Source of the DNA: Gemmatimonadota bacterium | GTDB lineage: Bacteria; Gemmatimonadota; Gemmatimonadetes; Gemmatimonadales; GWC2-71-9 | Assembly (NCBI GenBank): GCA_031382385.1 | Contig: JANMYS010000037.1 | Coordinates: 20,567-84,566, forward strand | Length of the DNA: 64,000 bases | Direction: 5' to 3' | Shown: piece by piece, positions 16,017 to 33,892 of the stretch | How positions within the stretch are numbered: the first letter of the stretch is position 1 | How the letters are laid out: the number at the start of each line of letters is the position of its first letter | Made by a program: the position numbers and the translations under genes | The notes under the pieces: generated by a model | Told to the model about the DNA's origin: nothing | Database searches by the model: none | Seen by the model: the letters and a program-made list of their open reading frames with translations, nothing else

Positions 16017-16043
16017 GGGAACCGGGGACAGGCTGCGGGCGTT
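16017..16043 (+). promoter_or_regulatory. ECF promoter P1
   Basis: GGGAACC-N16-CGTT, 40 nt upstream of small ORF 16084. Confidence 0.75.
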
Positions 16044-16305: not shown

Positions 16306-16332
16306 GGGAACCTCGGCGGGGGCTCGGACGTT
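16306..16332 (+). promoter_or_regulatory. ECF promoter P2 (putative autoregulatory)
   Basis: GGGAACC-N16-CGTT upstream of the sigma gene. Confidence 0.78.
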
Positions 16333-18288: not shown

Positions 18289-18315
18289 GGGAACCATCCC
18301 GCACGCCGGTGAGTT
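18289..18315 (+). promoter_or_regulatory. ECF promoter P3
   Basis: GGGAACC-N16-AGTT upstream of the ZAS-like ORF and glucosidase. Confidence 0.72.
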
Positions 18316-18415: not shown

Positions 18416-18697
18416 ATGGACCATGCAAGACCGAGCAAATGCACCGCAGGGCGTTGCGGCATGACAGGGCGGGACGATTCTGACACCAGCGGACGTCAGC
18501 AGTGGGACGCACAGAGGGAGCTCGACGACTGTGCGGCATGCGCTCGGGCAGCGCGCCTCGAGCAGACCCTCTGGCGGGTAGTGCGGGCGCGCATGCGCGA
18601 AGTGCGAACTCCCGAAGCGTTCGTCACTCGCCTCCGCCTCATGATCGCTGCCGAACAGGCCATCACACACGACTGGCTCGTGGGAGAGAACTCATGA
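18416..18697 (+). CDS. Degenerate anti-sigma (ZAS-like) paralog
   Basis: ELDDCAACARAARLE...RMREVRTPEAF aligns with HLRTCAACASEHRFE...KLSRIAAPPSL of 17157; ATGA overlap with the next gene; start may be 18461. Confidence 0.65.
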   Translation: MDHARPSKCTAGRCGMTGRDDSDTSGRQQWDAQRELDDCAACARAARLEQTLWRVVRARMREVRTPEAFVTRLRLMIAAEQAITHDWLVGENS

Positions 18698-21429
18698 AAC
18701 GAGATCATGCAGAAGCCGAGCGCCTCCGCGAAACGACGGCCGGCAGCGCAGCCTGGAAGCGGTGGGGGCCGTACCTCTCGGAACGGCAGTGGGGCACTGT
18801 CCGGGAGGACTACAGCGGCTCTGGCACGGCATGGGATTCATTTCCCCACGACCACGCGCGGAGTCGCGCCTACCGCTGGGGCGAGGATGGCCTCGCGGGC
18901 TTCTCGGATGCCGAGCAGCTGCTCTGCCTCGGTCTCGCCTTGTGGAATGGCCGGGATCCGATCCTCAAGGAGCGGCTCTTTGGCCTGACCAACAGCGAGG
19001 GGAACCACGGGGAGGACGTCAAGGAGCTGTACTACTTCCTCGACGCCACACCCACCCACAGCTACAACCGGATGCTCTACAAGTACCCGCAGGCGGCGTT
19101 CCCCTACGCCGATCTGCTGGAAGAGAACCGTCGCCGGGGCATTGCCGGGCTGGAGTACGAGCTGATTGACACGGGAGCTTTGGCGGAGAATCGCTACTTC
19201 GAAGTCGAGGTCGAGTACGCCAAGCGGTCGCCGGAGGCGCTCCACCTGACGCTGACCATCCACAACCGCGGACCGGCGGTGGCGACGCTGCATGTCCTGC
19301 CCCAGCTCTGGTTCCGCAACACCTGGTCGTGGACCCAAGGGGCCGTGCGTCCGATGCTCAGCCAGGGCGGGCCTGGAGTCGTTGTGGCCGAACATGAGCG
19401 GCTTGGCCGGCTGGCATGGACGGTCGAGGGCGCGGCGCCGCTGATGTTCACCGAGAATGAGACGAATGTTCGCCGACTTTACGGCGTGGACCGGCCCGGT
19501 TACTGCAAGGACGGCTTTCACGAGTTTGTCGTCGACGGCCGGACCGATGCGATCAACCCGGCGCACGTGGGCACCAAGGCCGCCGCGCACATCGTCCTTG
19601 AGATCCCGGCCGGATCGTCCCGTCAGGTGCGGGTGCAGCTCAGCCCCGAGGGTGACGCAACTACCTGGCCGGCGCATGACCAGGTGGTGGCATCCCGGCG
19701 CAAGGAGGCCGATGCCTTCTTCGCCGATCTGCAGGCGGATCTCGCCGACCCCGATGCGCGGATGGTCCAGCGTCAGGCCATCGCGGGCATGCTGTGGAGC
19801 AAGCAGTTCTTCCACTACGATCTCCCAAGCTGGCTCGACGGGGATCCCGCCCAGCCGGCACCACCGCCGGAGCGACGCCACGGCCGGAACAGCGAGTGGC
19901 GCCACCTGAACAACGCCGACATCATCTCGATGCCGGACACGTGGGAGTATCCCTGGTACGCGGCATGGGATCTCGCCTTCCACTGCATCCCGCTCGCCCT
20001 GGTCGACCCCGAGTTCGCCAAGGAGCAGCTGGTGCTGCTGACGCGCGAATGGTACATGCATCCCAACGGGCAGCTGCCGGCGTACGAATGGGCATTCGGC
20101 GACGTGAACCCGCCGGTGCATGCGTGGGCCACCTGGCGGGTCTACCAGATGGACCGCAATAGCCGGGGCGGGAAGGGCGATCTCGCCTTCCTGGAACGGG
20201 TCTTCCACAAGCTGATGCTGAACTTTACCTGGTGGGTAAACCGCAAGGATGCCCAGGGCCGGAATGTGTTCCAGGGCGGGTTTCTCGGCCTCGACAACAT
20301 CGGCGTGTTTGATCGCAGCGCTCCACTGCCGACCGGCGGTTACATCAATCAGGCGGATGGCACGGCCTGGATGGCGATGTACAGCCTCAATCTCATGCGG
20401 ATCGCGCTGGAGCTGGCCGAGCACAATCACGTCTATGAAGACATCGCCACCAAGTTCTTCGAGCACTTCCTGCATATCGCCGAGGCAATGACCAACATCG
20501 GCGACGAGGGTGTCGGGCTGTGGGACACGGAGGATGAGTTCTTCTATGATGTGCTCAACACCCCGGACAATCGGCTGATTCCGCTCCGGGTGCGGTCAAT
20601 GGTCGGACTGATCCCGCTCTTCGCCGTGGAGGTCATCGACCAGGAGCTGCTCGACAAGCTGCCCGGATTCGCCCGGCGATTGAAGTGGTTCCTGGACTAC
20701 CGTCCTGAACTGGCGGATCTCGTGTCCCGCTGGACCACGCCAGGCCAGGGAGAGCGGCGATTGCTCTCCCTGTTGCGGGGCCATCGGATGAAGCAGCTGC
20801 TGCGTCGGATGCTGGACGAAAGCGAGTTCCTGTCGGATTTCGGGATTCGCGCACTCTCCAAACACCATGAGCGCGAGCCCTACACCTTCGATGTCATGGG
20901 CTCGGAGCTCTCGGTGCGTTACCAGCCGGCGGAATCGGACTCCGGCCTGTTCGGCGGCAATTCCAACTGGCGCGGCCCGATCTGGTTCCCGGTTAACTAC
21001 CTGCTGATCGAATCGCTGCAGAAGTTCCACTACTACTACGGCGACAGCTTCCGGGTGGAATGCCCGGTCGGGTCGGGAACGATGCTGTCGCTCAGCGAGG
21101 TCGCCGACGAGCTGTCCCATCGCATGGCCCGCCTCTTTCTCCGGGGGGCTGACGGCCGACGGCCCGTGCTGGGCAATGACCCGCAGCTGCAGCAGGATCC
21201 GCACTTCCGGGATCTGGTCCTGTTCCACGAGTACTTCCACGGCGACACCGGCCGCGGGGTGGGCGCCTCGCACCAGACGGGATGGACCGGGCTGATCGCC
21301 AAGTTGCTGCAACCAAAGCGCTGCCCGATCACCGGCCACATGCTCGACCTCACCACCCGGATGCAGCAGCGTGGCGCGGTTGCGTCCGGGATACCAATCG
21401 CGGAGGGATTGGTCGTCGCGGGAACCTGA
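18694..21429 (+). CDS. MGH1-like (GH63-related) glucosidase
   Basis: [73 protein letters not shown]. Confidence 0.9.
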
Positions 21430-21446
21430 GAGGGACCCGATGCATT
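21420..21446 (+). promoter_or_regulatory. ECF promoter P4
   Basis: GGGAACC-N16-CATT spanning the glucosidase stop, upstream of the 44-aa ORF. Confidence 0.65.
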
Positions 21447-21489
21447 CTAGGCGCATGATGGATTGGCGATTCACCGGCCGGAGGGAATC

Positions 21490-21624
21490 ATGCGCGACAT
21501 CAAACCTGCTCTGGAATTCCTGTCCCTTGCGCTGGGCGATGAGGTCCCTCGCATCGCCCGGCGCGCCGCCCTCCTGACCGCGAGCCTGCTGGTCCTTGCC
21601 ACCATCGCCTGGATGGGATTGTGA
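21490..21624 (+). CDS. Unannotated 44-aa small membrane protein
   Basis: GGAGG RBS; MRDIKPALEFLSLALGDEVPRIARRAALLTASLLVLATIAWMGL; TGATG coupling to the next gene. Confidence 0.65.
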   Translation: MRDIKPALEFLSLALGDEVPRIARRAALLTASLLVLATIAWMGL

Positions 21625-23615
21625 TGCTCTCGGCCGCACCGCGGCTCGAGGCCGAGTGGCTCGAAGCGGATGGTCTCGGAGGATTTGCCTCCGGGACGGT
21701 AGGTGGCTGGCGGACCCGCCGATACCACGGCCTGCTCATTCCCGCCGTTTCGCCGCCGTCCGGGCGGGCGCTTCTCGTGGGCGGGCTCGAAGTGCATCTC
21801 GAGACACCGACGGAGCGGTTTCCGCTCAGTGCCCAGCGATTTTCGCCCGGCGTGACCGCCCCAGAGGGAACGACCTACCTCGCCTCGTTCGAGCACGAAC
21901 CGTGGCCCACCTGGATCTGGTCATTGCCGGGAGGCATCCGGGTTGCACACGAGTTGTTCCTGCCACATGGGATGCCGGCCACGGTGCTGCGCTGGCGGGT
22001 CAGCGGGGCGCCCAGGGGGACACGACTCAGCGTGCGCCCCTTCCTGGCTGGCCGCGACTCGCATGCCCTGCACTACGAGAATCCCGATTTCCGCTTCGAT
22101 GTGATCGGCGAAGGGGAGCGGCACGCCTGGCAGCCCTACGCGGCCCTCCCGGCCGTACACAGCCTGGCCAACGCCGGATATCACCACGAGCCGCACTGGT
22201 ATCGCCGCTTCCTGCTGGAAGAGGAGCGAGCCCGCGGGTTCGATCATCTCGAGGATCTCGGCACTCCCGGCGTGCTGGGTTGGGATGTCACATCGGAGGA
22301 TGCCGTCTGGGTGCTGAGCGCAGGCGGGCTGCCGGGCACGGAGGGACTCCAGGCCGGTAAGGCGCTGACGGTCGCGAACCGGCTGCGTGACCGGGAGTTG
22401 CGCCGGCGCAAGAGCTTCGCCTCGCCGCTTCACCGGGCGGCGGATGCCTACATCGTCGCGCGCGGGTCCGGCAAGACGATCATCGCCGGGTATCCCTGGT
22501 TCACCGATTGGGGGCGAGACACCTTCATCGCCCTCCGCGGTCTCTGCCTGGCGGGGGGCCGGCTCGATGACGCTCGGGACATCCTCGTCGAGTGGGCCGG
22601 CGCCGTGTCGGAAGGGATGCTGCCCAACCGTTTCGTGGAACAGGGAGACGCGCCAGAGTTCAACGCGGTCGATGCCTCCCTCTGGTATGTGATTGCCGTG
22701 CATGAGTTCCTGGAGGAGATGAAAGCCGCCAGCCGGCGCGTCGCCCCGGCGGACCGGGCGCGACTATCGGCTGCGGCGGACGCGATACTGGAGGGGTACG
22801 CCCGCGGCACCCGGTTCGGTATCCGGATGGATGATGACGGGTTGCTGAGTGCCGGCGTGGCCGGTGTGCAGCTGACCTGGATGGATGCCCGGATTGGCGA
22901 CTGGGTTGTCACACCGCGGATCGGCAAGCCGGTTGAAGTCCAGGCGCTCTGGCTGAATGCGTTGCGGATTGGCGCACAGCGCGACGACCGGTGGGCCCGC
23001 CTTCATGACCGCGCCCTCGCTTCGTTCCGCCAGCGCTTCTGGAACGAATCGGCCCGGTGCCTCCATGACGTGATCGACTGCGATCATGTCCCGGGGACAG
23101 TCGATGCTTCGATCCGGCCCAATCAGCTCTTCGCGGTCGGCGGACTCCCCTTCCCGCTGCTGGAGGGCGCACTCGCCCGGCAGATCGTGGACCGCGTCGA
23201 GGCCGACCTCTGGACGCCGCTCGGGCCCCGCAGCCTGGCGCCTGGCAGCGAGGGATATGCCCCGCATTACGTCGGGGGTCCGCGCGAGCGCGACGGTGCG
23301 TACCACCAGGGGACGGTCTGGCCGTGGGTGGCCGGGCCCTTCATCGAAGCTTGGATCCGGGTGCGTGGCGGTGGAGCCGACGCCGCCCGGGAGGCCGGAG
23401 CACGATTCTTCGCGCCGTTGCTGGAGCATCTGGAGCGAGCGGGGCTCGGGCATGTCTCCGAGATCGCCGATGCGGAGAAGCCCCACACCCCAGCCGGCTG
23501 TCCGTTCCAGGCCTGGTCGGTGGGCGAACTGCTCCGGATCGATCGCGTCCTGCGCGCCGCAGAATCCACCGACGCGCAGACCAGGCGGGCCGTCGCGGGC
23601 GGTACTACTGAATGA
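21621..23615 (+). CDS. Amylo-alpha-1,6-glucosidase (glycogen debranching, archaeal type)
   Basis: EWLEADGLGGFASGT, RTRRYHGLL, IAGYPWFTDWGRDTFI, LTWMDA, YHQGTVWPW, GCPFQAWSV; start GTG 21621 or ATG 21624. Confidence 0.92.
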   Translation: MMLSAAPRLEAEWLEADGLGGFASGTVGGWRTRRYHGLLIPAVSPPSGRALLVGGLEVHLETPTERFPLSAQRFSPGVTAPEGTTYLASFEHEPWPTWIWSLPGGIRVAHELFLPHGMPATVLRWRVSGAPRGTRLSVRPFLAGRDSHALHYENPDFRFDVIGEGERHAWQPYAALPAVHSLANAGYHHEPHWYRRFLLEEERARGFDHLEDLGTPGVLGWDVTSEDAVWVLSAGGLPGTEGLQAGKALTVANRLRDRELRRRKSFASPLHRAADAYIVARGSGKTIIAGYPWFTDWGRDTFIALRGLCLAGGRLDDARDILVEWAGAVSEGMLPNRFVEQGDAPEFNAVDASLWYVIAVHEFLEEMKAASRRVAPADRARLSAAADAILEGYARGTRFGIRMDDDGLLSAGVAGVQLTWMDARIGDWVVTPRIGKPVEVQALWLNALRIGAQRDDRWARLHDRALASFRQRFWNESARCLHDVIDCDHVPGTVDASIRPNQLFAVGGLPFPLLEGALARQIVDRVEADLWTPLGPRSLAPGSEGYAPHYVGGPRERDGAYHQGTVWPWVAGPFIEAWIRVRGGGADAAREAGARFFAPLLEHLERAGLGHVSEIADAEKPHTPAGCPFQAWSVGELLRIDRVLRAAESTDAQTRRAVAGGTTE

Positions 23616-24472
23616 CCGGTCGGTCTGTATTTGGAGAGCGCGAACTTCCCCGATGGATACAGCACCTGCCGGAGTACGCGGCGGAGGCCTTCGGTTTGGG
23701 CCTCTTCATGGTCTCGGCGTGTGGGTTCGCGTTGCTCTTCTTTCATCCGGCATCTCCGGCGCTTCAGTGGATACCGGGAGCGCTTGGCCGGAACCTGGCC
23801 ATGGGGGCGGCGATGGCAGTCACCCTGCTGGTGAATGTCTACGGCCCCTGGGGACAACGCTCCGGAGCGCATCTCAATCCCGCGGTGACGCTCACCTTCT
23901 ATCGGCTCGGCAAGGTGGCCGGTGGTGACCTCCCGGGCTATGTGGTGGCGCAGTTCCTCGGCGGCCTGGCGGGCACCGGGATCGCCGTACTCATCTTCGG
24001 GGACCTGCTGGCGGATCCTTCGGTGAACTACGTCGCGACGGTGCCGGGACCGGATGGTGTTGTGGTGGCCTTCCTCGCTGAACTGGCCATCACCTTCGTC
24101 CTGATGCTGGTCATCCTGCAGGTTGCTTCGACGGCAGCGCTTTCACGATACACCGGCGTCTTCGCCGCTGTCCTCGTGGGGCTGTACATCGCATTCGAGG
24201 CGCCCTACTCGGGCATGAGCATGAATCCCGCGCGTACGGTGGGCTCCGCCGTCTACGCCCATCTCTGGACCGGGCTCTGGCTGTATTTCGTTGCCCCGCC
24301 ACTCGGCATGCTCTCGGCGGCCGAAGTCTTCCTCCGCCTCCGCGGAACCGGGGCCAGACTCTGTGCCAAGCTGTATCACTCCAGTCGGGTGCGCTGCATT
24401 TTCTGCGGGCAGGAGCCGGAAGCGCAGCCGGCCTCCGTTCTCCGGGAACCACTACGCCACGTCAGGCATTAG
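23612..24472 (+). CDS. MIP/aquaporin family channel
   Basis: SGAHLNPAVT and MSMNPAR (two NPA motifs), six TM helices, Cys-rich tail. Confidence 0.93.
   Translation: MTGRSVFGERELPRWIQHLPEYAAEAFGLGLFMVSACGFALLFFHPASPALQWIPGALGRNLAMGAAMAVTLLVNVYGPWGQRSGAHLNPAVTLTFYRLGKVAGGDLPGYVVAQFLGGLAGTGIAVLIFGDLLADPSVNYVATVPGPDGVVVAFLAELAITFVLMLVILQVASTAALSRYTGVFAAVLVGLYIAFEAPYSGMSMNPARTVGSAVYAHLWTGLWLYFVAPPLGMLSAAEVFLRLRGTGARLCAKLYHSSRVRCIFCGQEPEAQPASVLREPLRHVRH
24444..24470 (+). promoter_or_regulatory. ECF promoter P5
   Basis: GGGAACC-N16-CATT at the aquaporin 3' end, upstream of the DM13 gene. Confidence 0.65.
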
Positions 24473-24532
24473 AGCCCCTGAGCGGGCCACACACGGTGGC
24501 CCGCAGGACGCACTGACTCGGGAGGCAGGACA

Positions 24533-24922
24533 ATGCGCGGAATGACGAAGGCTCTGACGATGCTGGTGGCGCTGGTCGCGGTGACCACGGCGGCGGCGGC
24601 GCCGGTGAAGACCTTCATCAGCAAGCCGTTTGCTGGTGTGAAGGCCAACACCGGCACGGTGACGGCGACGGTCGATGGTGGCAAGATCACCCTGAAGGTC
24701 TCGGATGACTTTGTCATCCCCGATACCCCGGCTCCCAGCTGGCAGATCGTGGACTCCAAGGGCAACACCTACCTGCTCAACCAGATGCGGATCAAAGGCG
24801 ACAAGACCAACCGCATGATCACCCTGCCGAGCTACATCAAGGACATCGCTAAGGTGCAGGTGTGGTGTTCGTTCGCCGAAGTGGTGCTGGGCGAGACCAG
24901 CTTCGATACCATCGTCAAGTAA
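24533..24922 (+). CDS. Secreted DM13-like protein
   Basis: Signal peptide; VQVWCSFAEVVLGETSF resembles the DM13 WC motif; strong codon bias. Confidence 0.7.
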   Translation: MRGMTKALTMLVALVAVTTAAAAPVKTFISKPFAGVKANTGTVTATVDGGKITLKVSDDFVIPDTPAPSWQIVDSKGNTYLLNQMRIKGDKTNRMITLPSYIKDIAKVQVWCSFAEVVLGETSFDTIVK

Positions 24923-24989
24923 CTGACGTCTACTGTACCGCCGGTCGGGCGTTCCCGGCCGGCGGTCGTGTTTCCGGGAGGGAACGACA

Positions 24990-25862
24990 ATGCGACAGTT
25001 CACACTGCTGGGCCTTGGCCTGGCGCTGGGCGGGATCGTCTCGCCAGCCTCCGCCCAGGTGGCGGAACACAAGAGTCTCACGATCGAGGGCGCCAGGAAC
25101 GTGATCGCGGCGGCCGTCACCTACGCGCGGACCAAGGCCGGAACCGGCGTGATCGCCGTCGTCGACGATGGCGGCAACCTGATGGCGCTCGAACGGCTCG
25201 ATGGCACCTTCGCCGCCGGGGCGAACATCTCGATCGGCAAGGCACGCACCGCCGCACTGTTCAAGAAGCCGACCCGGTTCTTCGAGGAGCTGATCAACAA
25301 GGGTCGGACCGCCATGACGGCGGTGAACGACTTCACCCCGCTGATCGGCGGCGTGCCGATCCTGGTCGACGGCCAGATCGTCGGGGCCATCGGCGTGAGT
25401 GGCGCGGCTTCGGCTGCTGAAGATGAGGAAGTGGCAATGGCCGGGGCGGCCGGGGTCGGAACCCAGGTCTCGATGGCCGGGCCGGTCCATACGATGAGCG
25501 TCAACTATTTCACGCGCGACCAGGTCAACGCCGCGTTCGCCAAGGGCAGCGTCCTGGTCGACGGGACCGGGCGCAACTACATGGTGCATGCCAGCCGTCG
25601 CGACAAGGCGGGCCAGGCCGAAGTGCATGTGCTCGACACCGACGTCATCTACGTGCAGGAGGGCGCCGCCACCTTCGTGACCGGCGGCATGGTCATGGGC
25701 GGGAAGACGATCGAGCCGAACGAAGTTCGCGGCGATTCTATCAGCGGCGGCGAGACCCGCCGGATTGTGAAGGGCGACGTCATCACCGTGCCGAACGGTA
25801 CACCACACTGGTTCCAGGACGTGAAGGGCACGCTGACGTACTACGTCGTCAAGGTCCGGTAG
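24990..25862 (+). CDS. Secreted GlcG/HbpS heme-binding domain fused to a cupin
   Basis: IAVVDDGGNL..LERLDG, KARTA, GGVPI..GAIGVSG; cupin EVH...D and VPNGTPHWF. Confidence 0.85.
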   Translation: MRQFTLLGLGLALGGIVSPASAQVAEHKSLTIEGARNVIAAAVTYARTKAGTGVIAVVDDGGNLMALERLDGTFAAGANISIGKARTAALFKKPTRFFEELINKGRTAMTAVNDFTPLIGGVPILVDGQIVGAIGVSGAASAAEDEEVAMAGAAGVGTQVSMAGPVHTMSVNYFTRDQVNAAFAKGSVLVDGTGRNYMVHASRRDKAGQAEVHVLDTDVIYVQEGAATFVTGGMVMGGKTIEPNEVRGDSISGGETRRIVKGDVITVPNGTPHWFQDVKGTLTYYVVKVR

Positions 25863-25868
25863 GGCACC

Positions 25869-27509
25869 ATGCGACGGGTACTCCTCACCCTCGCGGCCGT
25901 CACGGCGCTCGGCTCCTCCGGGATCCGGGCGCAGGTGACTGGTGACGCCCCATACGGCAAGCCGGCAGCAATCATCAACCTCGGTACCAGCAGCGGGGCA
26001 GGGCTGGTGCGGGGCCAGTGGCGTTACAGTGACGCGCAGTTCACCGAGGTCGAGCACCATGCTCCCGGCCGGGACCTGCGCCCCTCTGGCCCACCCAACC
26101 GGACCCACGACATCTCCCCCCATGCCGGCACAGCGGACTTCGATGATTCCGCCTGGAGCACCTTTCCGGCCGAATCGATCGAGGCACGTCGCGGCAACGG
26201 CAAGTTCAGCTTCAACTGGTACCGGATCAATCTCACGATTCCGGCCCGGGTGGGGAAGCACGATCCGACCGGCATGACCGTCGTCTTCGAGCTCGTCGTG
26301 GATGATTACGCCGAGGTCTGGGTCAACGGAAAGCTGCCAGTCACGCTCGGTCAGACCGGCGGGCAGTTGGTCAAGGGCTTCAACGCGCCGAATCGCGTGG
26401 TTCTCACCCGGGATGCGCGGCCGGGCCAGCAGTTCCAGCTGGCCATCTTCGGCATGAATGCCCCGGTCTCCAACCCGCCGGTGAATTTCATCTGGATCCG
26501 TTCCGCGACGCTGGATTTCTATACCGCGGCGCAGGCGCGGGTGGGGCATGACGTCGAGGTCAAGTTCACCCGGCACGACCCCGCATTCGACGCGCTTGTG
26601 TCACCCGGGGCCGGGGTCGAGAAACTGGCCGGCGGGTTCGAGTTCCTCGAGGGGCCGGTCTGGGTCCGCGAGGGTGGCTACTTGCTCTTCAGCGATCCGA
26701 ACACGAACACCATCTATCGCTGGTCGCCGGACGGTCAGGTGAGCGTCTATCGGACCAAGAGCGGCTACGCCGGGCTCGATATCGGCGACTACCATCAGCC
26801 AGGTTCGAATGGGCTGGCACTCGACTCCGCCGGTCGGGTGGTGATCGATCAGCACGGCAATCGTCGGGTCATCCGGGTCGAACGGACGGGCGCGGTGACG
26901 GTGCTCGCCGATCGCTACGAGGGCAAGCGCCTCAACAGCCCCAACGATCTGGTGTTCCGGTCCGATGGCAGCCTCTACGTCACCGATCCGCCCTTCGGAC
27001 TGCCCGGCGTCTTCGCAGACCCGGCGAAGGAAACGCCGTGGAGCGGCGTCTACCGGATTCACGACGGACAGGTGACCCTGCTGACGAAGGAACTCAGCGG
27101 CCCGAACGGGATCGCGTTCTCCCCCGATGAGAAGACGCTCTACGTCGATAACTGGGATCCGAAGCGCAAGGTGATCATGCGCTACGATGTGAACGCCGAC
27201 GGCACGATCGCCAACGGCCGGGTCTTCTTCGACATCACGCAGTCAGTCCCCGGGGATGATGCCTGGGACGGCATCAAGGTGGATCGTGACGGAAACGTCT
27301 ACGCCGCCGGGCCTGCGGGGATTTACGTCCTCTCGCCGGCCGGCAGACTGCTCGGCACGATCACGCTGCCGGAGCATGTGGCGAATTTTGCCTGGGGTGA
27401 TGGCGATCTGCAGACGCTCTACATCACCGCCTCCACCGGTCTGTACCGGCTGCGCATGAACCTCCCCGGCGCCGTGGCGTTCGGCTCGACCCAGGCGGCC
27501 ACCCGATGA
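25869..27509 (+). CDS. Secreted SMP-30/gluconolactonase with N-terminal sugar-binding-like domain
   Basis: Signal peptide; NWYR and VDDYAEVWVNG jelly-roll; EGPVW, GSNGL, NSPNDL and DGIKVD motifs. Confidence 0.88.
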   Translation: MRRVLLTLAAVTALGSSGIRAQVTGDAPYGKPAAIINLGTSSGAGLVRGQWRYSDAQFTEVEHHAPGRDLRPSGPPNRTHDISPHAGTADFDDSAWSTFPAESIEARRGNGKFSFNWYRINLTIPARVGKHDPTGMTVVFELVVDDYAEVWVNGKLPVTLGQTGGQLVKGFNAPNRVVLTRDARPGQQFQLAIFGMNAPVSNPPVNFIWIRSATLDFYTAAQARVGHDVEVKFTRHDPAFDALVSPGAGVEKLAGGFEFLEGPVWVREGGYLLFSDPNTNTIYRWSPDGQVSVYRTKSGYAGLDIGDYHQPGSNGLALDSAGRVVIDQHGNRRVIRVERTGAVTVLADRYEGKRLNSPNDLVFRSDGSLYVTDPPFGLPGVFADPAKETPWSGVYRIHDGQVTLLTKELSGPNGIAFSPDEKTLYVDNWDPKRKVIMRYDVNADGTIANGRVFFDITQSVPGDDAWDGIKVDRDGNVYAAGPAGIYVLSPAGRLLGTITLPEHVANFAWGDGDLQTLYITASTGLYRLRMNLPGAVAFGSTQAATR

Positions 27510-28210
27510 GCCCCCGCCACAGGAATGCGCTGCGGTGGGTGCTCCCCGGCGCGCTGGTCGTCCTCGGCGCGGCCCGTCCCGCCGGGGCGCAGGACCCGGT
27601 GCCGCTCTACCCCGGCAACTACAAGGTCATGATCGAGAATGATCGGGTCCGGGTCATGGACTTCCAGCTTCGGCGTGGCGCGCGCGAGGAGATGCACATG
27701 CATCCCGCTCATGTGCTCTACGTCCTGACCGGCTTCCGGATCCGCTTCACCTTTCCCGATGGCACCACGAAGATCCGGGAGACCATGGCGGGCGAGGTAC
27801 TGTACAGCGATGCCGTGATGCACTCGCCCGAGAATATCGGTGATACCGATGCCCACGGCATCCTGGTCGAGCTCAAGCCTCAGGTGACCGGCAGGGGTGC
27901 GGAGATCGACGCAGCCTCATCCCCGCTCACGGCGTTCACCTTCGTCCACGGACTGGCCGGCCAGGGCGACCCCCTGCAATTTCACCTGCTCTCCCTCACC
28001 GCCCCAACGCGCGCCGAGGACGGGGCAATCCGGTACGACCTCTACCGCTCCGTCGAGCGGCCCGACGACTTCCTCCGCCACGAGGTATGGCGCGACAGGG
28101 CGGCACTTGAGGCGCACAAGCAGACTCCTCCGCTTCGTGCCTCCTTTGCCCGGCGCCAGCGGGAGGGGTGGACCACGGCCATCACCCTGTGGCTCCCGGT
28201 GCAGCCATGA
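27506..28210 (+). CDS. Secreted cupin fused to an ABM (antibiotic biosynthesis monooxygenase) domain
   Basis: ENDRVRV, MHMHP, HSPENIG; TRAEDGAIRYDLYR...EVWRDRAALEAH. Confidence 0.8.
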   Translation: MSPRHRNALRWVLPGALVVLGAARPAGAQDPVPLYPGNYKVMIENDRVRVMDFQLRRGAREEMHMHPAHVLYVLTGFRIRFTFPDGTTKIRETMAGEVLYSDAVMHSPENIGDTDAHGILVELKPQVTGRGAEIDAASSPLTAFTFVHGLAGQGDPLQFHLLSLTAPTRAEDGAIRYDLYRSVERPDDFLRHEVWRDRAALEAHKQTPPLRASFARRQREGWTTAITLWLPVQP

Positions 28211-29229
28211 GCCCCGGCCGCCACTATCTGCGGGTTGCTGTGCTCCTGCTCGGGTGCATCACGCCAGCGACGGCTCAGGGCCCCGGTACCCCCTCTGTCG
28301 AGGGGAGGATCACCCGACTGGACCCCCGCTTCGACCGGCTGATCCCCGCCGGAGCCACGCTGGAACTGGTGGTCGATGGGCATGAGTGGGCCGAGGGCCC
28401 GCTGTGGGACCGGAAGGCGGGCTGCCTGCTCTTCTCCGACGTCATTCGCAATACCGCCTACCGGTGGTGTGAGGGCGCCGGAGAGAGCGTCCTGCTCGCC
28501 CACAGCGGCTACACCGGCAGGGAACCGTTCAAGGGCAGGGAACCTGGCTCCAACGGACTCGCCTTCGACCGCGATGGAAGCCTGCTCATGGCGGAACATG
28601 GCGATCGGAGGATCAGCCGACTGGGTGCGGATGGACGGAAGACCACGCTGGTCGACCGATTTGACGGGAAGCGCATCAACAGCCCCAATGACCTGATCGT
28701 GACAGCCGCCGGTGACCTGCTGTTCACCGATCCGCCCTGGGGCTTGCCGCAGTGGTGGGCTGATCCCGGGAAGGAGCTGCCGTTCAGTGGGGTCTATCGC
28801 CTGTCCGCGGCGGGCCGGCTGACCGTCCTCAGCCGTGATTTCCAGGCGCCGAACGGTATCGCCGTGTCGCCCGACGGCCGCACCCTGATCGTGAGCGAGT
28901 CAAAGCCGGAGATCGGCGCGTGGTACGCGTTCACCGTGAATGCCGACGGCTCCCTGACCGGCAAGCGCAGGCTGCTCGACGCGGTGCCCTGGTCCGTGGG
29001 ACGCATGGGGGTACCGGATGGGCTCAAGCTCGATCGGGAGAGTCACATCTTCGGCGGCGGGCCCGGTGGCGTCTATGTGATCGACCCCGACGGCACTCTG
29101 CTCGGTATCATCGAGACCGGGGGGCCGGCCTCCAACACAGTCTGGGGTGGGGACGGCTCGATGCTCTACATCACCTCCGGTGCCCGGATCTTCCGTTTGC
29201 AGACCACTACCCACGGGGCTGGTTGGTAG
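28207..29229 (+). CDS. Secreted SMP-30/gluconolactonase
   Basis: WAEGPLW, LFSD, GSNGL, NSPNDL, TDPPWG and PDGLKLD motifs. Confidence 0.9.
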   Translation: MSPGRHYLRVAVLLLGCITPATAQGPGTPSVEGRITRLDPRFDRLIPAGATLELVVDGHEWAEGPLWDRKAGCLLFSDVIRNTAYRWCEGAGESVLLAHSGYTGREPFKGREPGSNGLAFDRDGSLLMAEHGDRRISRLGADGRKTTLVDRFDGKRINSPNDLIVTAAGDLLFTDPPWGLPQWWADPGKELPFSGVYRLSAAGRLTVLSRDFQAPNGIAVSPDGRTLIVSESKPEIGAWYAFTVNADGSLTGKRRLLDAVPWSVGRMGVPDGLKLDRESHIFGGGPGGVYVIDPDGTLLGIIETGGPASNTVWGGDGSMLYITSGARIFRLQTTTHGAGW

Positions 29230-29236
29230 CTCCTCC

Positions 29237-29262
29237 GGGAACCTCTGCCGGTGCACGGCGTT
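29237..29262 (+). promoter_or_regulatory. ECF promoter P6
   Basis: GGGAACC-N15-CGTT in the gap before the 62-aa ORF and GMC gene. Confidence 0.7.
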
Positions 29263-29284
29263 GAGAGGGCAACAGGAGATACCC

Positions 29285-29473
29285 ATGTCAGCCTCGTTCA
29301 CGCAGCCCGACACACTGCTCGATCACCCCGCTCTTGCGGGCCATACCGTCTTCGTCCGGCGCGGCGGGGATTGGCAGCGCTTCGTCGTGCGCCAGGCCGG
29401 TGGCCTCGTGCCCGACCACTCCCACACCACGCGTTTCGCCAGCTTCGGCTGGCGCACGCCAGCCTGGAGCTGA
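29285..29473 (+). CDS. 62-aa small protein
   Basis: AGGAG RBS; MSASFTQPDTLLDHPALAGHTVFVRRGGDWQRF...WS; ends 2 nt before the GMC start. Confidence 0.6.
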   Translation: MSASFTQPDTLLDHPALAGHTVFVRRGGDWQRFVVRQAGGLVPDHSHTTRFASFGWRTPAWS

Positions 29474-29475
29474 CC

Positions 29476-31014
29476 GTGCCGCACTACGACGTCATCATCA
29501 TCGGTTCGGGCGCGGGCGGCGGTACCCTCGCCTGGAAGCTGGCAGCGAGCGGCAAGCGCATCCTCCTGCTCGAGCGTGGGGAATACGTCCCGCGCGAACC
29601 GCAGAACTGGAACACGCGCGCGGTCAACGTCGAGGGTCGCTACAACACCCGGGAATCCTGGCTCGACAAGGCCGGCAAGCCGCTGCACCCCCATACCAAC
29701 TACTGGGTGGGCGGCAACACCAAGTTCTATGGCGCCGCGCTCTTCCGCCTGCGGCGGGAGGATTTCGGCGAGCTGCGCCACCACGGCGGCATCTCTCCCG
29801 CCTGGCCGATCAGCTATGACCAACTCGAGCCCTACTACACTCAGGCCGAGCATCTCTATCAGGTGCATGGCGAGCGGGACGTGGATCCGACCGAGCCCTG
29901 GGCAAGCGCACCATACAAGTATCCCGCGGTCAGCCATGAGCCCCGCATCCAGCAGCTGAACGACGACCTCGTGGCCCGCGGGCACCGGCCCTTTCATACG
30001 CCGCTGGGTATCCAGCTCAACGAGGCCAACCGCCGGGCCAGCGCCTGCATCCGCTGCGCGACCTGCGACGGGCACCCCTGCCTGGTCAACGCGAAGTGCG
30101 ACGCGCAGACCATCTGCATCGACCCCGCGTTGGAGCAGTATCCCAACCTGGAGCTGATGACGGGAGCGTATGTCTCGCGGCTGGAGACCAGCAGTTCCGG
30201 CCGCGAAGTGGCTCGGGTGCACGTCGAACGGCACGGGACGACCGAGGTGTTCACTGCCGGCTTCGTCGTCGTGGCCGCCGGGGCGATCAACTCCGCGGCG
30301 CTGCTGTTGCGCTCCGCCAGCGACCGGCATCCCCGCGGTCTCGCGAACGGTTCGGATGTCGTCGGCCGCCACTACATGGGTCACATCAACGCCGTGCTCA
30401 TGGCCATTTCGACCACGCCGAACCCCACGGTCTTCCAGAAATCCCTCTCCCTGAACGATTTCTACTTCGGCACCAAGGACTGGGCCTTCCCGATGGGGCA
30501 TATCTCGTTTGTCGGGAAGCTGGATGCCGATACCCTGGCGGCTGGTGCGCCGCCGTTCGTTCCCGGCATGACCCTCGATGTCATGGCGAAGCATTCGCTG
30601 GACTTCTGGCTCACCTCCGAGGACCTTCCAGCGGCGGATAACCGGGTCACGCTCGACCGCGACGGCCGGATCGTGCTGAGCTATACCCCGAATAACCTCG
30701 AAGGTCATGTCCGGCTCACCGACCAGTTGCGCCGGATCATGCGCGACGTCGGCATGAGCCACGTCGTCCCGCGTCAGCTCTTCGTCGGGCAGCGGATCCC
30801 GTTGGCGGGTGTCGCCCACCAGAATGGCACCATCCGGTTCGGGACCGATCCCGCCACGTCCGCTCTCGATCCGAACTGCCGGGCCCATGAGGTCGACAAT
30901 CTCTACGTCGTCGATGGGAGCTTCTTTCCTTCCAGCGGCGCGGTCAATCCGGCCCTGACGATCATGGCCAATGCCCTTCGCGTGGGCGATCATCTGCTTG
31001 AGAGGCTGGCATGA
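29476..31014 (+). CDS. GMC family FAD oxidoreductase with Cys-rich motif
   Basis: YDVIIIGSGAGGG, LLLERG, CIRCATCDGHPC, AHQNGT, NLYVVDGSFFPS..VNPALT. Confidence 0.93.
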   Translation: MPHYDVIIIGSGAGGGTLAWKLAASGKRILLLERGEYVPREPQNWNTRAVNVEGRYNTRESWLDKAGKPLHPHTNYWVGGNTKFYGAALFRLRREDFGELRHHGGISPAWPISYDQLEPYYTQAEHLYQVHGERDVDPTEPWASAPYKYPAVSHEPRIQQLNDDLVARGHRPFHTPLGIQLNEANRRASACIRCATCDGHPCLVNAKCDAQTICIDPALEQYPNLELMTGAYVSRLETSSSGREVARVHVERHGTTEVFTAGFVVVAAGAINSAALLLRSASDRHPRGLANGSDVVGRHYMGHINAVLMAISTTPNPTVFQKSLSLNDFYFGTKDWAFPMGHISFVGKLDADTLAAGAPPFVPGMTLDVMAKHSLDFWLTSEDLPAADNRVTLDRDGRIVLSYTPNNLEGHVRLTDQLRRIMRDVGMSHVVPRQLFVGQRIPLAGVAHQNGTIRFGTDPATSALDPNCRAHEVDNLYVVDGSFFPSSGAVNPALTIMANALRVGDHLLERLA

Positions 31015-32135
31015 GGCGGCTCGCGGGTGCGGTGTGCCGGCTGCTGAACCTGGCGGTGCCGCTCAGCCACCTGCTGTACGGGGCGGTGGGGCTCGTCTTC
31101 CCTACCCCCCGGGACACCACCGCGCAGCAGTTCCCCTGTTGCGGCGGCGGCACCGCCAACGTCATCGCCGTGGTAGCCCCAGCGGAACGCATCCCGCGCT
31201 CGACACCCCATGCGCTCGCCGTCGCCCGCATCGGGCTCACGGTCAGCGACATGGAGCGCTCCCTTGCCTTCTACACCGGGACCCTGCAGTTCCGCGTGGT
31301 CGCGGATACCGAAGTCGCCGGCGCCTCGTGGGAAGTGGCGACCGGAGTCTTCGGTGTCCGGCTCCGCCGGGTCACCCTTGCACTGGGCCGGGAACGACTG
31401 GAGCTGACGGAATTCCTGGCCGCGTCACGTCCGGGCCTGGCCGCGCCGGTCGACAGCCGCAGCAACGACCGGTGGTTCCAGCATGTCGCCATCATCACCA
31501 GCGACATGGACAGTGCCTATCGGCTGCTCCGCGCCCACCGGGTCCGCTCCGCCTCGACATCACCACAGCTTCTCCCGGCATCGCTGCCCAACGCGGCGGG
31601 CATTCGCGCCTTCTACTTCCGGGACCCGGACGGTCATCCGCTCGAAGTGCTCCAGTTTCCTGCGGACAAGGGCGAGGAGCGATGGCAGGCGCGCGGCTCG
31701 CTCTTTCTGGGAATCGATCATACGGCGATTGTCGTGGCCAGCACCGAACGCAGCCTGGCGTTCTATCGTGATCAGCTTGGCATGCGGGTGGCGGGTGGCA
31801 GTGAGAACTTCGGCACGGAGCAGGAGCATCTCAACAACGTGGAAGGGGCCCACCTGCGCATCACGGCGCTGCGGGCGCCTGCGGGCCCGGGTGTGGAGTT
31901 GCTCGAATACCTGTTCCCCCGCGACGGGCGCCCCTATCCGGACACGGAACGGCCCAACGACCTGGTGCACTGGCAGACGGTCATTCGCGTCGAGGATCCG
32001 GCACGCGTGGCCGCACAGTTGGTGCGGGGCGGGGCGACGATGCTTTCGCGACTGCCGCCGGGGAACCGCCCGGTGCTCCCGGGCGTTCTGCTGCGAGACC
32101 CCGATGGGCATGTGATCGAGCTGGTGACTCCCTGA
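31011..32135 (+). CDS. Two-domain VOC/glyoxalase family protein
   Basis: VSDMERSLAFY, FQHVAI, YFRDPDGHPLE, IDHTAI, RDPDGHVIEL; start uncertain. Confidence 0.88.
   Translation: MRRLAGAVCRLLNLAVPLSHLLYGAVGLVFPTPRDTTAQQFPCCGGGTANVIAVVAPAERIPRSTPHALAVARIGLTVSDMERSLAFYTGTLQFRVVADTEVAGASWEVATGVFGVRLRRVTLALGRERLELTEFLAASRPGLAAPVDSRSNDRWFQHVAIITSDMDSAYRLLRAHRVRSASTSPQLLPASLPNAAGIRAFYFRDPDGHPLEVLQFPADKGEERWQARGSLFLGIDHTAIVVASTERSLAFYRDQLGMRVAGGSENFGTEQEHLNNVEGAHLRITALRAPAGPGVELLEYLFPRDGRPYPDTERPNDLVHWQTVIRVEDPARVAAQLVRGGATMLSRLPPGNRPVLPGVLLRDPDGHVIELVTP
32061..32087 (+). promoter_or_regulatory. ECF promoter P7
   Basis: GGGAACC-N16-CGTT within the VOC 3' end, 65 nt upstream of the GNAT gene. Confidence 0.7.
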
Positions 32136-32152
32136 ATTGCGCGGAGGTTCCG

Positions 32153-32605
32153 ATGGCCCTCTCATTCCGGCAGTGCACGATCGACGATGCGGACCAACTC
32201 GCGCTCCTGGTTGAAGCGTGGATCAGGGAAGAGCGACGGCCGGCAAGCCAGCCGATGATCCGCGCCGGCCTGGCCCGGTTTCTCGGCGACAACCATCATG
32301 GGCATGCCTGGATTATCGAGCAGCATGGCGTGCCGGTCGGATATGCCATGCTCGGGATCAGCGCACTGGACCACCATGGCGCACCGCGCGGCTACGTGAC
32401 CGCACTGTACGTCGAGCCGGCCCACCGCCGCCAGGGCATTGGCCCGCGTACCGAGCGGTTCCTGGCCGATGTGACGCGCTGGCTCCAGCTCCCACTCTAT
32501 CAGTTCGGGACCGGCGACGAAGGAAAGCACGCCTCGCTGCTTTTCCGTCCCTGTGGCTTCGGGACCACGCCGTTCACTTCTCTCAATGTACAGGCGGTCG
32601 CATGA
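32153..32605 (+). CDS. GNAT family acetyltransferase (possibly divergent C-terminus)
   Basis: [13 protein letters not shown] motif A; GGAGG RBS. Confidence 0.75.
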
Positions 32606-33768
32606 GCTCAACGTCGATGTCTCCCCGGTCAGTCGGCGCCAGAATGCCGGCCGGCACGGGCATGATGCAGGCCCTCGCCGTGCTGCCGGGCCAGCCTGGC
32701 TCGGCGCACCTGCGCCAGGTGCCACGACCGTCACTCGAGGAGATTCCGAACGGTCGCGGCGTACTCGTCAAAGTCCTGCGGGTGGGCGTCGATGGCACCG
32801 ACAAGGAGATCAATGCGGCGGAATACGGGCAGGCGCCCCCGGGCGATGACTACCTCATCATTGGCCACGAGGGGTTCGGCCGGGTCGAGGCGGTGGGACC
32901 GAAGGTGACCGAGCTGGCGGTCGGTGACTATGTCGTCGCCACGGTGCGCCGGCCCGGTACCAGCCTGTACGATCTGATCGGCACAAACGACATGACCACC
33001 GATGAGATCTACTTCGAGCGGGGCATCAACCTGCGGCACGGCTACCTCGCCGAATACTACGTCGACGATGCCGAGTTCATCGTGAAGATTCCGCAGGGGC
33101 TGAAGGAGATCGGCGTGCTCCTGGAACCGACCACGGTGGTGGAAAAGGGGATCGCCCAGGCCTACGAGATCCAGCGGCGGCTGCGGGTCTGGCATCCGCG
33201 CAAGGCCGCGGTCATGGGGGCGGGAACCATCGGCCTCCTTGCGGCGATGGCGCTGCGGCTCAGGGGACTGGACGTGACGGTGTTCGGGCTGCGGGAGAAG
33301 CCCTACCGCAACGCCGACCTGCTGGAAGCGATCGGGGCACGCTACATCCCGGCCAGGGTCCTTCCGATTCACGACGCAGCGAGGCAGTTCGGCCCATGGG
33401 ACATGATCTTCGAAGCGACCGGGCACTCCGGCGTGGTCTTTGACAGCATGCAGGTGCTGGGGAAGAATGGTGTGCTGGTGCTTTCGAGCGTGACGGGGGG
33501 AGACCGCAAGGTCGAGGTGCCGGCTGACCGGATCAACCTGGACTTCGTGCTCGGCAACAAGGTGATGGTGGGAACGGTGAACGCGAACCGGGAGTACTTC
33601 GAAGCCGGTGTCCGCGACCTGGCTCAGTGCTCGGCGCAGTTTCCCGGCTGGCTCGAGTCGTTGCTGACCCACCCGGTCCAGGGGTTGGAGAACTACGCCC
33701 GGATGTTCGAACTGCTCACGACGGGCCGGGACGCGATCAAGGTCTACTGCGAGGTCGCCCCGCTCTAG
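32602..33768 (+). CDS. Zn-dependent glucose 1-dehydrogenase (MDR family, archaeal type)
   Basis: [41 protein letters not shown]; start 32602 or 32662. Confidence 0.88.

Positions 33769-33819: not shown

Positions 33820-33892
<73 letters not shown>

Follow-up and report, generated by a model that had tools for sequence, protein, structure and literature searches.

We analysed a run of genes within a 64,000-nucleotide stretch of a Gemmatimonadota genome (contig JANMYS010000037.1; this whole stretch is hereafter the window), which has a G+C content of 64-72% and whose closest public relatives are metagenome-assembled Gemmatimonadota genomes. The run (18694-33768) lies entirely on the + strand, as judged from the listing of open reading frames (ORFs) and from Pfam and NCBIfam scans. 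It encodes two glucosidases, a membrane channel, six exported proteins, a flavoprotein dehydrogenase of the GMC family and a glucose dehydrogenase, and it lies downstream of a gene pair for an extracytoplasmic function (ECF) sigma factor and a zinc anti-sigma factor. By sequence comparison, about 15 genes of this set are co-inherited, recurring in many phyla among bacteria from soil and sediment, and a stress-sensing sigma factor apparently switches them on. The gene families, their co-inheritance, the sigma/anti-sigma pair and a promoter motif conserved in relatives were observed directly. Our preferred reading, to which we give a probability of roughly 0.5, is that the genes form a stress regulon in which an internal alpha-glucan or alpha-glucoside is hydrolysed to glucose, which is then oxidised without phosphorylation.

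The initial annotation of this DNA had described the run as a coherent unit and named a search of gene neighbourhoods as a check. The same partners were recovered from three seeds (the GH63 glucosidase, the GMC dehydrogenase and a lactonase) in Gemmatimonadota, Acidobacteriota, Rokubacteria, Planctomycetota, Verrucomicrobiota, Bacteroidota, Nitrospirota, Cyanobacteria and Proteobacteria, and because it recurs across phyla the arrangement is far beyond chance. With the GH63 seed (80 loci, mapped by tblastn and clustered), the full gene order recurs in Gemmatimonadota, and the genes for the channel (MIP), the GMC dehydrogenase and a VOC metalloprotein adjoin the GH63 gene in Acidobacteriota (L012, L068, L070), Opitutaceae (L066) and Phycisphaerales (L038, where the exported set is also present). 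Two gammaproteobacterial loci (L002, L051) carry the exported set, the glycogen-debranching-like enzyme (GDE), GH63, MIP and VOC together with a distant GMC paralogue. A Methylobacterium locus (L015) carries GDE, GH63, GMC, SGL and VOC. The GMC seed also gave 80 loci, with carriers that include Pyrinomonadaceae, Bryobacteraceae, Thermoanaerobaculia, Rokubacteria, Tepidisphaerales and Rhodothermaceae. Counts were made on those 37 loci that are flanked by 8 kb or more in each direction, and these contain VOC (32), GH63 (29), MIP (29), GDE (24), the Zn-dependent glucose dehydrogenase (23) and lactonases of the SGL family (19). Either the Zn enzyme or a glucose dehydrogenase of the short-chain dehydrogenase/reductase (SDR) type is present in 31 of the 37, which bears out the earlier proposal that glucosidases and glucose dehydrogenases are coupled. 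The lactonase seed (56 loci) again recovered GMC, VOC and the SDR dehydrogenase in Bacteroidota (Chitinophagales, Saprospiraceae), a cyanobacterium (L211), Nitrospirales (L212, L218) and Myxococcales (L217).

The association is also found within the phylum. In 201 genomes, taken as one sample throughout, 19 carry a GMC ortholog and 30 carry GH63 (one of the genomes behind the second count, G157, is unpublished). Both are present in 18 of the 19, where ~2.8 would be expected if they were independent, an expectation that treats related genomes as independent although they are not. GH63 and GMC lie on one contig, ~4-10 kb apart, in 13 of the 18 genomes. The genes are thus co-inherited, as the coherent unit proposed earlier implies. 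The module is patchily distributed (6 of 98 genera have GMC), and its GH63 and GMC proteins are 70-76% identical between phyla; this patchiness, combined with such identity, suggests an accessory unit that spread horizontally.

The locus, including its regulators, comprises the following features (coordinates of the window):
16018..16043, + strand: distal ECF-type promoter-like motif, GGAACC-N-GCGTT, upstream of the sigma factor gene
16307..16332, + strand: proximal ECF-type promoter-like motif upstream of the sigma factor gene, a likely autoregulated promoter
16462..17160, + strand: ECF sigma factor with regions 2 and 4, best match SigH_actino (below cut-off); the true start may be a few codons downstream
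17157..17420, + strand: small soluble zinc anti-sigma factor, zf-HC2, RsrA-like; its start overlaps the sigma stop codon
17417..18238, - strand: pentapeptide-repeat protein, between the sigma/anti-sigma pair and GH63
18290..18315, + strand: variant of the promoter-like motif (GGAACC-N-GAGTT), ahead of GH63 and the second anti-sigma-like ORF
18416..18697, + strand: degenerate second anti-sigma-like ORF; its stop overlaps the GH63 start
18694..21429, + strand: GH63/MGH1-like alpha-glucosidase, 911 aa, predicted cytoplasmic
21621..23615, + strand: archaeal-type glycogen-debranching-like amylo-alpha-1,6-glucosidase (GDE_N and GDE_C)
23612..24472, + strand: MIP channel, nearest to the NIP/AqpM type, with a Cys/His-rich C-terminal tail
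24533..24922, + strand: predicted exported 129-aa protein of a remote DM13-like family
24990..25862, + strand: predicted exported protein with an HbpS/GlcG-like domain and a weak cupin
25869..27509, + strand: SGL lactonase 1, a predicted exported SMP-30/gluconolactonase-like beta-propeller with an N-terminal domain of ~250 aa
27506..28210, + strand: predicted exported protein with a C-terminal ABM domain
28207..29229, + strand: SGL lactonase 2, SMP-30/gluconolactonase-like, signal peptide with a lipobox-like LLGC (by eye)
29238..29262, + strand: ECF-type promoter-like motif before the small ORF and GMC
29285..29473, + strand: conserved ORF of 62 aa that has a Shine-Dalgarno-like sequence, with its stop codon 2 nt ahead of GMC
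29476..31014, + strand: GMC flavoprotein dehydrogenase, without signal peptide, carrying a conserved CxxCxxCxxxxC block
31011..32135, + strand: predicted exported tandem (two-domain) VOC metalloprotein; its start overlaps the GMC stop
32062..32087, + strand: ECF-type promoter-like motif inside the 3' end of the VOC gene, 65 nt before GNAT
32153..32605, + strand: GNAT acetyltransferase
32662..33768, + strand: Zn-dependent glucose 1-dehydrogenase of the medium-chain dehydrogenase/reductase (MDR) superfamily, archaeal type (Glu_dehyd_C)

From the junction of the second anti-sigma-like ORF with GH63 to that of GNAT with the glucose dehydrogenase, the intergenic gaps are -4, 191, -4, 60, 67, 6, -4, -4, 246, -4, 17 and 56 nt. 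Five junctions are 4-nt overlaps, and the only larger gaps are the 191 nt before GDE and the 246 nt before GMC, the latter containing the conserved 62-aa ORF. The 3' border agrees with the one drawn earlier, since the genes downstream of the run are housekeeping genes, a DUF512 radical-SAM protein and EngA. The gene run and family labels of the initial annotation were recovered from the ORFs and Pfam matches at these coordinates, with the exception of the DM13 label and the cupin half of a cupin-ABM assignment, which are treated with the exported proteins below.

The sigma factor matches only Sigma70_r2 and Sigma70_r4_2 in Pfam, and its best match is TIGR02947 (SigH_actino; 1.2e-42, 145.8 bits, below the cut-off of 251.55). 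The overlapping 87-aa anti-sigma factor (zf-HC2, 4.4e-9) contains Cys11, His37, Cys41 and Cys44, i.e., the HxxxCxxC motif plus an N-terminal cysteine, residues comparable to the zinc ligands of RsrA. Its best match is the RsrA model (45.9 bits, below the cut-off of 62.5). As both proteins score below the curated cut-offs, we refer to them as SigH/RsrA-like and not as members of these families. In the second anti-sigma-like ORF, the zinc-binding histidine of HxxxCxxC is replaced by a glutamate and the N-terminal half is divergent; it has no zf-HC2 match, scores only 24 bits against the RsrA model, and could represent a duplicate in decay or a regulator that does without zinc. The pentapeptide-repeat gene keeps its place near the sigma/anti-sigma pair in many Gemmatimonadota relatives.

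A motif of the form GGAACC-N-(G/A)CGTT, which corresponds to GGAAC-N17/18-GTT, has two copies ahead of the sigma gene and single copies ahead of the small ORF with GMC and of GNAT with the glucose dehydrogenase; a variant precedes the second anti-sigma-like ORF and GH63. The pattern GGAACC-N14-17-SGTT has four sites in the window, all on the + strand and all in the locus (0.75 expected; none of 100 shuffles reached four), a statistic that is post hoc because the pattern was picked after the first matches had been seen. In the whole genome, the GGAACC form has 19 matches, four in the 17-kb locus and 15 outside it. One of these 15 lies ~35 nt before the start of an unlinked ortholog of the SDR glucose dehydrogenase, and it had been listed before the gene itself was located there. 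In related Gemmatimonadota loci (175 matches in 160 loci, counts that include duplicate contigs), the motif stands before GH63 (18), the anti-sigma (13), GMC (12), GNAT (9) and the sigma gene (7). Its spacing is 22-69 nt upstream of GH63 or the anti-sigma gene, 199-215 nt before GMC (11 of the 12 matches), and 60-66 nt before GNAT in the nine matches. The motif therefore has two independent supports, its recurrence at homologous places in relatives and its match before the unlinked SDR gene. The zinc anti-sigma control proposed earlier is in line with these results: an ECF sigma factor and a zf-HC2 anti-sigma factor lie upstream, and a shared motif precedes four transcription units and an unlinked glucose 1-dehydrogenase. 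Among the matches elsewhere in the genome, only two appeared meaningful, those before the SDR glucose dehydrogenase and an MsrP-like gene. The latter, a molybdopterin oxidoreductase gene (C7:35942-38067 of the same genome), has a GGAACC-type motif 52 nt before it and is a possible further regulon member related to envelope repair. In other phyla, different regulators stand next to the cluster (different ECF sigma factors, sigma-54 activators).

The GH63 protein matches MGH1-like_GH (85.9 bits, cut-off 27) and Glyco_hydro_63 (28.3 bits, cut-off 22.4). A phmmer search of PDB with this protein gave no match, and a profile of 14 sequences (the window protein and those of 13 of the 80 loci) matched only yeast glucosidase I (4.2e-6). 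The structure model is of medium confidence (pLDDT 71.5, pTM 0.79), and its top Foldseek matches are all GH63 proteins with TM 0.5-0.6, processing alpha-glucosidase I (8e3j, E 5.2e-17; 4j5t; 5mhf) followed by E. coli YgjK. The modelled fold would comprise an N-terminal beta-sandwich and an (alpha/alpha)6 barrel, as in full-length glucosidase I. The alignment contains many invariant acidic residues, and the proteins are 56-76% identical across phyla and thus constitute a distinct, very conserved GH63 subfamily. Because the protein is very far from characterised enzymes, we infer glucose as its product from the family and the neighbouring genes. The GDE protein matches GDE_N (184.3 bits) and GDE_C (340.3 bits) and falls just under the cut-off of the archaeal-type model TIGR01561 (349.1 bits, cut-off 364.15). 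In other Gemmatimonadota, genes for a GT4/5 glycogen-synthase-like glycosyltransferase and a GH57 protein are found just upstream of the sigma gene (L005:5012-6283, L006:6790-8031), and in two relatives (L029, L043) the promoter motif stands before the glycosyltransferase gene. In the window's genome, tblastn detected only two weak glycosyltransferase matches (23-27% identity) and no GH57 match.

The Zn-dependent MDR dehydrogenase matches Glu_dehyd_C (175.2 bits, cut-off 34.9) and ADH_N, and its nearest solved relatives are the glucose dehydrogenases of Haloferax (2b5v, 3.1e-60) and Sulfolobus (2cd9, 8.4e-36). The commonest extra neighbour in relatives is the SDR gene, which adjoins GH63, usually directly downstream, in 29 of the 80 GH63-seeded loci. 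The nearest solved protein to this SDR enzyme is the glucose 1-dehydrogenase of Bacillus megaterium (1rwb, 1.1e-77), twenty orders of magnitude better than FabG, and its score with the NCBIfam model for glucose 1-dehydrogenase, NF005559, is above the cut-off (247.6 bits, against 215). In the window, the SDR gene is missing from the place next to GH63, and the run ends with the Zn MDR enzyme instead; the ortholog of this genome (69% identity) is on another contig (C34) and scores 232.8 bits with the same model. Where the Zn glucose dehydrogenase is missing, the SDR enzyme is usually beside GH63. GH63 enzymes invert the anomeric configuration and release beta-glucose, and the glucosidase domain of GDE probably does likewise. 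The pairing of glucosidase and dehydrogenase is therefore chemically sensible, since the Bacillus megaterium enzyme, which takes either NAD+ or NADP+ as cofactor, acts specifically on beta-D-glucose, according to a passage of PMC3882111.

The nearest solved relatives of the GMC protein, which has both the N and C domains, are the catalytic subunits of Burkholderia FAD-glucose dehydrogenase (6a2u_B, 1.5e-31) and Gluconobacter fructose dehydrogenase (7w2j, 3.8e-29). Its CxxCxxCxxxxC block aligns with the Cys-rich Fe-S region of these enzymes, with a different spacing; in the alpha subunit of FAD-glucose dehydrogenase, this region provides the ligands of a 3Fe-4S cluster. The block is conserved in 91 of 100 GMC matches and missing only from paralogues of at most 57% identity. 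The GMC homologues begin directly with the FAD motif and lack a leader or signal peptide, and neither a small subunit with a Tat signal nor a cytochrome c subunit was found among the cluster proteins. As the leader of the VOC protein is also Sec-like and not Tat-like, the GMC enzyme is probably cytoplasmic. Export of GMC as a hitch-hiker of VOC, in the manner of the alpha and gamma subunits of FAD-glucose dehydrogenase, was considered and rejected: GMC is leaderless, and a twin arginine is present in only 24 of 98 VOC leaders, a share similar to that in the other exported proteins (for SGL lactonase 1, 15 of 66). In 124 GMC loci, we identified 24 distinct candidates for the 62-aa ORF; ~18 of them, all from Gemmatimonadota, share the block L-x-HPALAG-x-T...VR...W...WR, and the other six look unrelated. 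The encoded protein may be a small partner of GMC. A riboswitch or other known RNA in the leader before GMC was not retained either, as Rfam gave only the downstream tRNA (33820-33892) and the leader holds the small ORF.

The channel belongs to the MIP family (PF00230, 100.4 bits), with two NPA boxes visible in the translation. Its score is well below the cut-off for the orthodox water channel aquaporin Z (NF003838, 69.6 bits, cut-off 256); its nearest solved relatives are NIP2-1 (8.3e-21) and AqpM, and AqpZ matches at only ~1e-10. The tail (24370-24472) contains a conserved Cys/His block, C-A-K-L-H-H ... R-C-I-F-C or ...C-I-F-R-C. The strict pattern was detected in 45 of 91 distinct tails, and most of the others carry a C-x3-C variant by eye; Bacteroidota-type homologues (38-41% identity) have no such block. 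The tail could be a zinc- or redox-sensitive gate.

Export was predicted with a signal-peptide heuristic of our own, not with SignalP. It gives six exported proteins (DM13-like, GlcG-cupin, two SGL lactonases, ABM and VOC) and not the five of the initial annotation, since the N-terminus of VOC is also signal-peptide-like. The 129-aa protein has no PF10517 match at E 0.01, and the DM13 label is left with a profile-profile match: hhalign aligned 17 members with 14 true DM13 neighbours over 98 columns (probability 69%, E 4.5e-5), with a shared WC motif, the reference neighbours having PF10517 at 2.3e-26 in L105. In many loci, a ~400-aa membrane-anchored protein with a true DM13 domain lies directly before GMC. 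No cupin match was found in the N-terminal half of the ABM protein, and this part of the earlier label was dropped. The two SGL domains score 155.2 and 120.9 bits (cut-off 26.3). The N-terminal ~250 residues of SGL lactonase 1 (25869-26650) have no Pfam match, but together with the propeller they are conserved in different phyla and, on visual inspection, look like a sugar-binding beta-sandwich. VOC homologues are predicted to be exported in 98 of 104 cases, with Sec-like leaders, and an invariant His/Glu/His/Glu set is found in 18 sequences. The sequence search of PDB with VOC was uninformative, and the score against the glyoxalase I model TIGR00068 was 37.3 bits, below the cut-off of 120. 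The VOC structure model (pLDDT 91) matches the 2,6-dichlorohydroquinone dioxygenase PcpA (4huz, TM 0.66), B. subtilis 3oaj and maize glyoxalase I (TM 0.65) about equally.

Several further genes were observed around the cluster. A ferric-reductase-type membrane domain fused to a Rieske domain and a 250-aa protein recur near it (L038:4416-5480 and L038:3658-4419) in Planctomycetota, Acidobacteriota, Verrucomicrobiota, Bacteroidota and some Gemmatimonadota, and may be a membrane electron partner; the window's genome has the ferric-reductase/Rieske gene on another contig (C61:39674-41427). Upstream of the sigma gene are genes for a LarC-like nickel insertion protein and a TPR protein (13104-15952, +). 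The MIP protein weakly matches the lactic-acid channel LarD (9e-7), and the presence of the LarC-like gene upstream is probably a coincidence. A tRNA-Gly(CCC) (33820-33893, +) directly follows the last cluster gene and might mark the insertion border of a mobile accessory unit.

Under the preferred reading, the SigH/SigR-like sigma factor would be held by the RsrA-like zinc anti-sigma factor, and its release would fire four promoters. The trigger, by analogy with RsrA, would be thiol oxidation or electrophiles. Two cytoplasmic inverting glucosidases, GH63-like and GDE-like, would then hydrolyse an internal alpha-glucan or alpha-glucoside to free beta-D-glucose, and the NAD(P)+-dependent glucose 1-dehydrogenases (the Zn MDR enzyme and the unlinked Bacillus-type SDR enzyme with the same motif) would oxidise it without ATP, yielding NAD(P)H and gluconolactone. 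The cytoplasmic FAD/Fe-S GMC dehydrogenase is probably a second route that is not nicotinamide-linked. In the least certain step, the NIP-like channel and the six exported proteins would act on small neutral or reactive products outside the membrane, for which lactones, dicarbonyls and quinones are candidates. In this scheme we infer which substrates are used, which way the flow runs, which stress induces the genes and what the reducing power is for. Of the interpretation in the initial annotation, the unit, its ECF/anti-sigma control and the core of glucose release and oxidation hold on comparative evidence; the substrate, the inducing stress and the periplasmic arm, with its putative hydrolysis of gluconolactone by exported SGL proteins and detoxification of dicarbonyls by VOC, we keep conditional. 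A more elaborate version, which we hold to be improbable as a whole, is an "emergency reductant" module that is widespread and spreads horizontally. Stored glucan would be hydrolysed and glucose oxidised without ATP when thiol or oxidative stress sets in; the NIP-like channel, its Cys/His tail possibly gated by redox or zinc, would export the lactone, and the exported lactonases would trap the product and make the NAD(P)H step irreversible. The Fe-S GMC dehydrogenase and DM13-type proteins, elsewhere with ferric-reductase/Rieske proteins, would pass sugar electrons across the membrane for envelope repair or detoxification.

The genes might instead constitute a stress island without a common pathway, in which one sigma factor controls genes that each act alone (glucan turnover, a channel, envelope detoxification, an oxidoreductase). 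Gene order and content do vary between phyla, the exported set is on the other strand or absent in many loci, GH63 and GDE stand alone in many Proteobacteria, and the cytoplasmic and exported proteins belong to different compartments. However, the three independent seeds recovered the same partners in phyla with other regulators, including sigma-54 activators, so shared control by this ECF sigma factor cannot be what holds the genes together. The 4-nt overlaps in GDE-MIP, SGL1-ABM-SGL2 and GMC-VOC also point to tight translational coupling, and we consider this explanation rather unlikely. The glucosidase could also serve the disposal of a compatible solute after osmotic down-shift or rehydration: GH63 would cut a glucosyl solute (glucosylglycerate, glucosylglycerol, or a kojibiose- or trehalose-type compound), the MIP channel would release the aglycone or water, and the glucose would be burned. 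The Pfam match to a mannosylglycerate-hydrolase-like GH domain is compatible with this, as is the nearness of the channel to solute-conducting NIP/AqpM proteins and not to AqpZ. The mycobacterial GH63 enzyme GgH removes glucosylglycerate on recovery from nitrogen starvation, according to the abstracts of PMC6608630 and PMC5381378, but the protein of the window is twice its size and has no sequence match to GgH in PDB. Genes for GpgS/GpgP, GgpS and OtsA did not turn up among the recurrent neighbours, and GDE, together with the GT4/5 synthase and GH57 of relatives, points to a polymeric alpha-glucan. The cyanobacterial glucosylglycerol hydrolase Slr1670 (885 aa), which is of similar length and was considered as a homologue of the GH63 protein, is placed in another family, GHL5, in a passage of PMC5002435, and homology was rejected on that ground. 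We consider solute disposal unlikely.

The emphasis may lie on the envelope, where exported VOC (hydroquinone-dioxygenase-like), ABM (quinol-monooxygenase-like), cupin, lactonase and DM13 proteins would break down or neutralise quinones, lactones or dicarbonyls outside the cytoplasm, with glucose oxidation as the source of reductant. The equal fit of the VOC model to PcpA, 3oaj and glyoxalase I leaves room for a quinone-related function, nearly all VOC homologues have predicted signal peptides, an RsrA-like anti-sigma factor would sense thiol-reactive compounds, and the MsrP-like molybdoenzyme gene elsewhere in the genome carries the motif. Yet the His/Glu/His/Glu set fits a glyoxalase-I-type site better than the 2-His-1-carboxylate site of a dioxygenase, and no quinone reductase genes were seen in the cluster; we regard this explanation as very unlikely.

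Several observations weigh against the reading of a glucose-oxidising stress regulon. The GH63 protein, to judge from the PDB searches, is very distant from any characterised enzyme. The sigma and anti-sigma factors both score under the NCBIfam cut-offs for SigH and RsrA, and the motif statistic of the window is post hoc. A looser form of the motif is not enriched genome-wide (22 matches, 9-20 expected), and with 22-33 matches against 9-20 expected, the motif alone is too noisy for a genome-wide regulon to be drawn from it. The hallmark SigR target trxB has no motif, and a relaxed motif is found ~90 nt upstream of only one of the two full thioredoxin genes, with a chance of ~0.03 per gene. In this genome (95% complete), there is no evident route onward from gluconate, as gluconokinase of either type, 6-phosphogluconate dehydrogenase, Edd and Eda had no match over the cut-offs; nor did glucose-6-phosphate dehydrogenase (G6PD). 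Edd and FGGY gluconokinase gave sub-threshold matches only, and G6PD_C, 6PGD and Eda gave none. With the models tried, the oxidative pentose-phosphate and Entner-Doudoroff routes were thus not found, nor was the usual NADPH source. A role of the module as a stand-in for the oxidative pentose-phosphate pathway fits this genome and not the phylum, and was set aside: the module carriers are not depleted in G6PD (10 of 19, vs 96 of 201 overall, in tallies that include the unpublished genomes G157 and G057). Finally, since the lactonases are exported and the glucose dehydrogenases cytoplasmic, a simple path that leads from glucose through the lactone to gluconate would depend on a hypothetical carrier across the membrane.

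If the preferred reading is correct, many soil and sediment bacteria would turn a carbohydrate store into reducing power under stress, by a dedicated route around hexokinase and the pentose-phosphate pathway. Three very conserved but little-noticed protein families would gain a physiological role: the 911-aa GH63 subfamily, an Fe-S GMC enzyme without cytochrome partners and a NIP-like channel with a Cys/His tail. Redox switches of the SigR/RsrA type would then also operate in Gemmatimonadota, there over a regulon of sugar-oxidation genes. With four predicted promoters and a small soluble anti-sigma factor, the system is directly testable. We found no description of this gene combination in the literature, in a search made mostly at the level of abstracts and passages.

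The cluster shares features with several known systems. Bacterial GH63 enzymes (mycobacterial GgH, E. coli YgjK, Thermus MGH) have the same fold and an MGH1-like domain, and GgH is likewise cytoplasmic and hydrolyses a glucoside store when cells pass through a stress transition, according to the abstracts of PMC6608630 and PMC5381378. The protein described here differs in being about twice as long, in its N-terminal beta-sandwich, which resembles that of eukaryotic glucosidase I, and in having no phmmer match to a solved GH63 protein. The closest solved relatives of the GMC enzyme belong to the Burkholderia FAD-glucose dehydrogenase (alpha-gamma-beta) and Gluconobacter fructose dehydrogenase complexes, with which its Cys block aligns, whereas our cluster lacks the Tat small subunit and cytochrome c, its GMC protein has no signal peptide and the Cys spacing is CxxCxxCxxxxC. 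The archaeal non-phosphorylative route of sugar oxidation also combines a Glu_dehyd_C Zn dehydrogenase with SMP-30-type lactonases. Here the lactonases are exported and the predicted control is by stress and not catabolic, and gluconate dehydratase, 2-keto-3-deoxygluconate (KDG) aldolase and Eda were not found with the models tried.

The regulation is most like that of SigR-RsrA and SigH-RshA in actinobacteria (ECF12). The sigma factor has SigH_actino as its best match, the overlapping 87-aa soluble zinc anti-sigma factor has RsrA, and the GGAAC-N17/18-GTT promoters, including one before the sigma gene itself, resemble the actinobacterial SigR consensus, GGAA(T/C)-N17-18-GTT. Unlike these systems, ours belongs to another phylum with scores below the curated cut-offs, has a second, degenerate anti-sigma copy before GH63, and has a predicted regulon of glucose mobilisation and oxidation, not of thioredoxin and mycothiol genes, with trxB lacking the motif. 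The genes ycdF (a glucose 1-dehydrogenase homologue) and ycdG (an alpha-glucosidase homologue) belong to the SigB regulon of B. subtilis, according to a passage of PMC7824861, and YcdF and YxnA are required under severe ethanol stress in the account given in part of PMC3882111. A stress sigma factor over a glucosidase and an SDR glucose 1-dehydrogenase is thus common to both, and the SDR enzyme here is close to that of Bacillus; the Bacillus glucosidase is of another family, Bacillus has no GDE, MIP, Fe-S GMC or exported set, and the sigma factor is of another type. EcfG of Sphingomonas was not retained as a precedent, as the passage that mentions it concerns GlgX of a trehalose cluster, a different family. 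Overall, the nearest known systems are the SigR/RsrA switch, for its regulatory logic, and ycdF/ycdG of B. subtilis.

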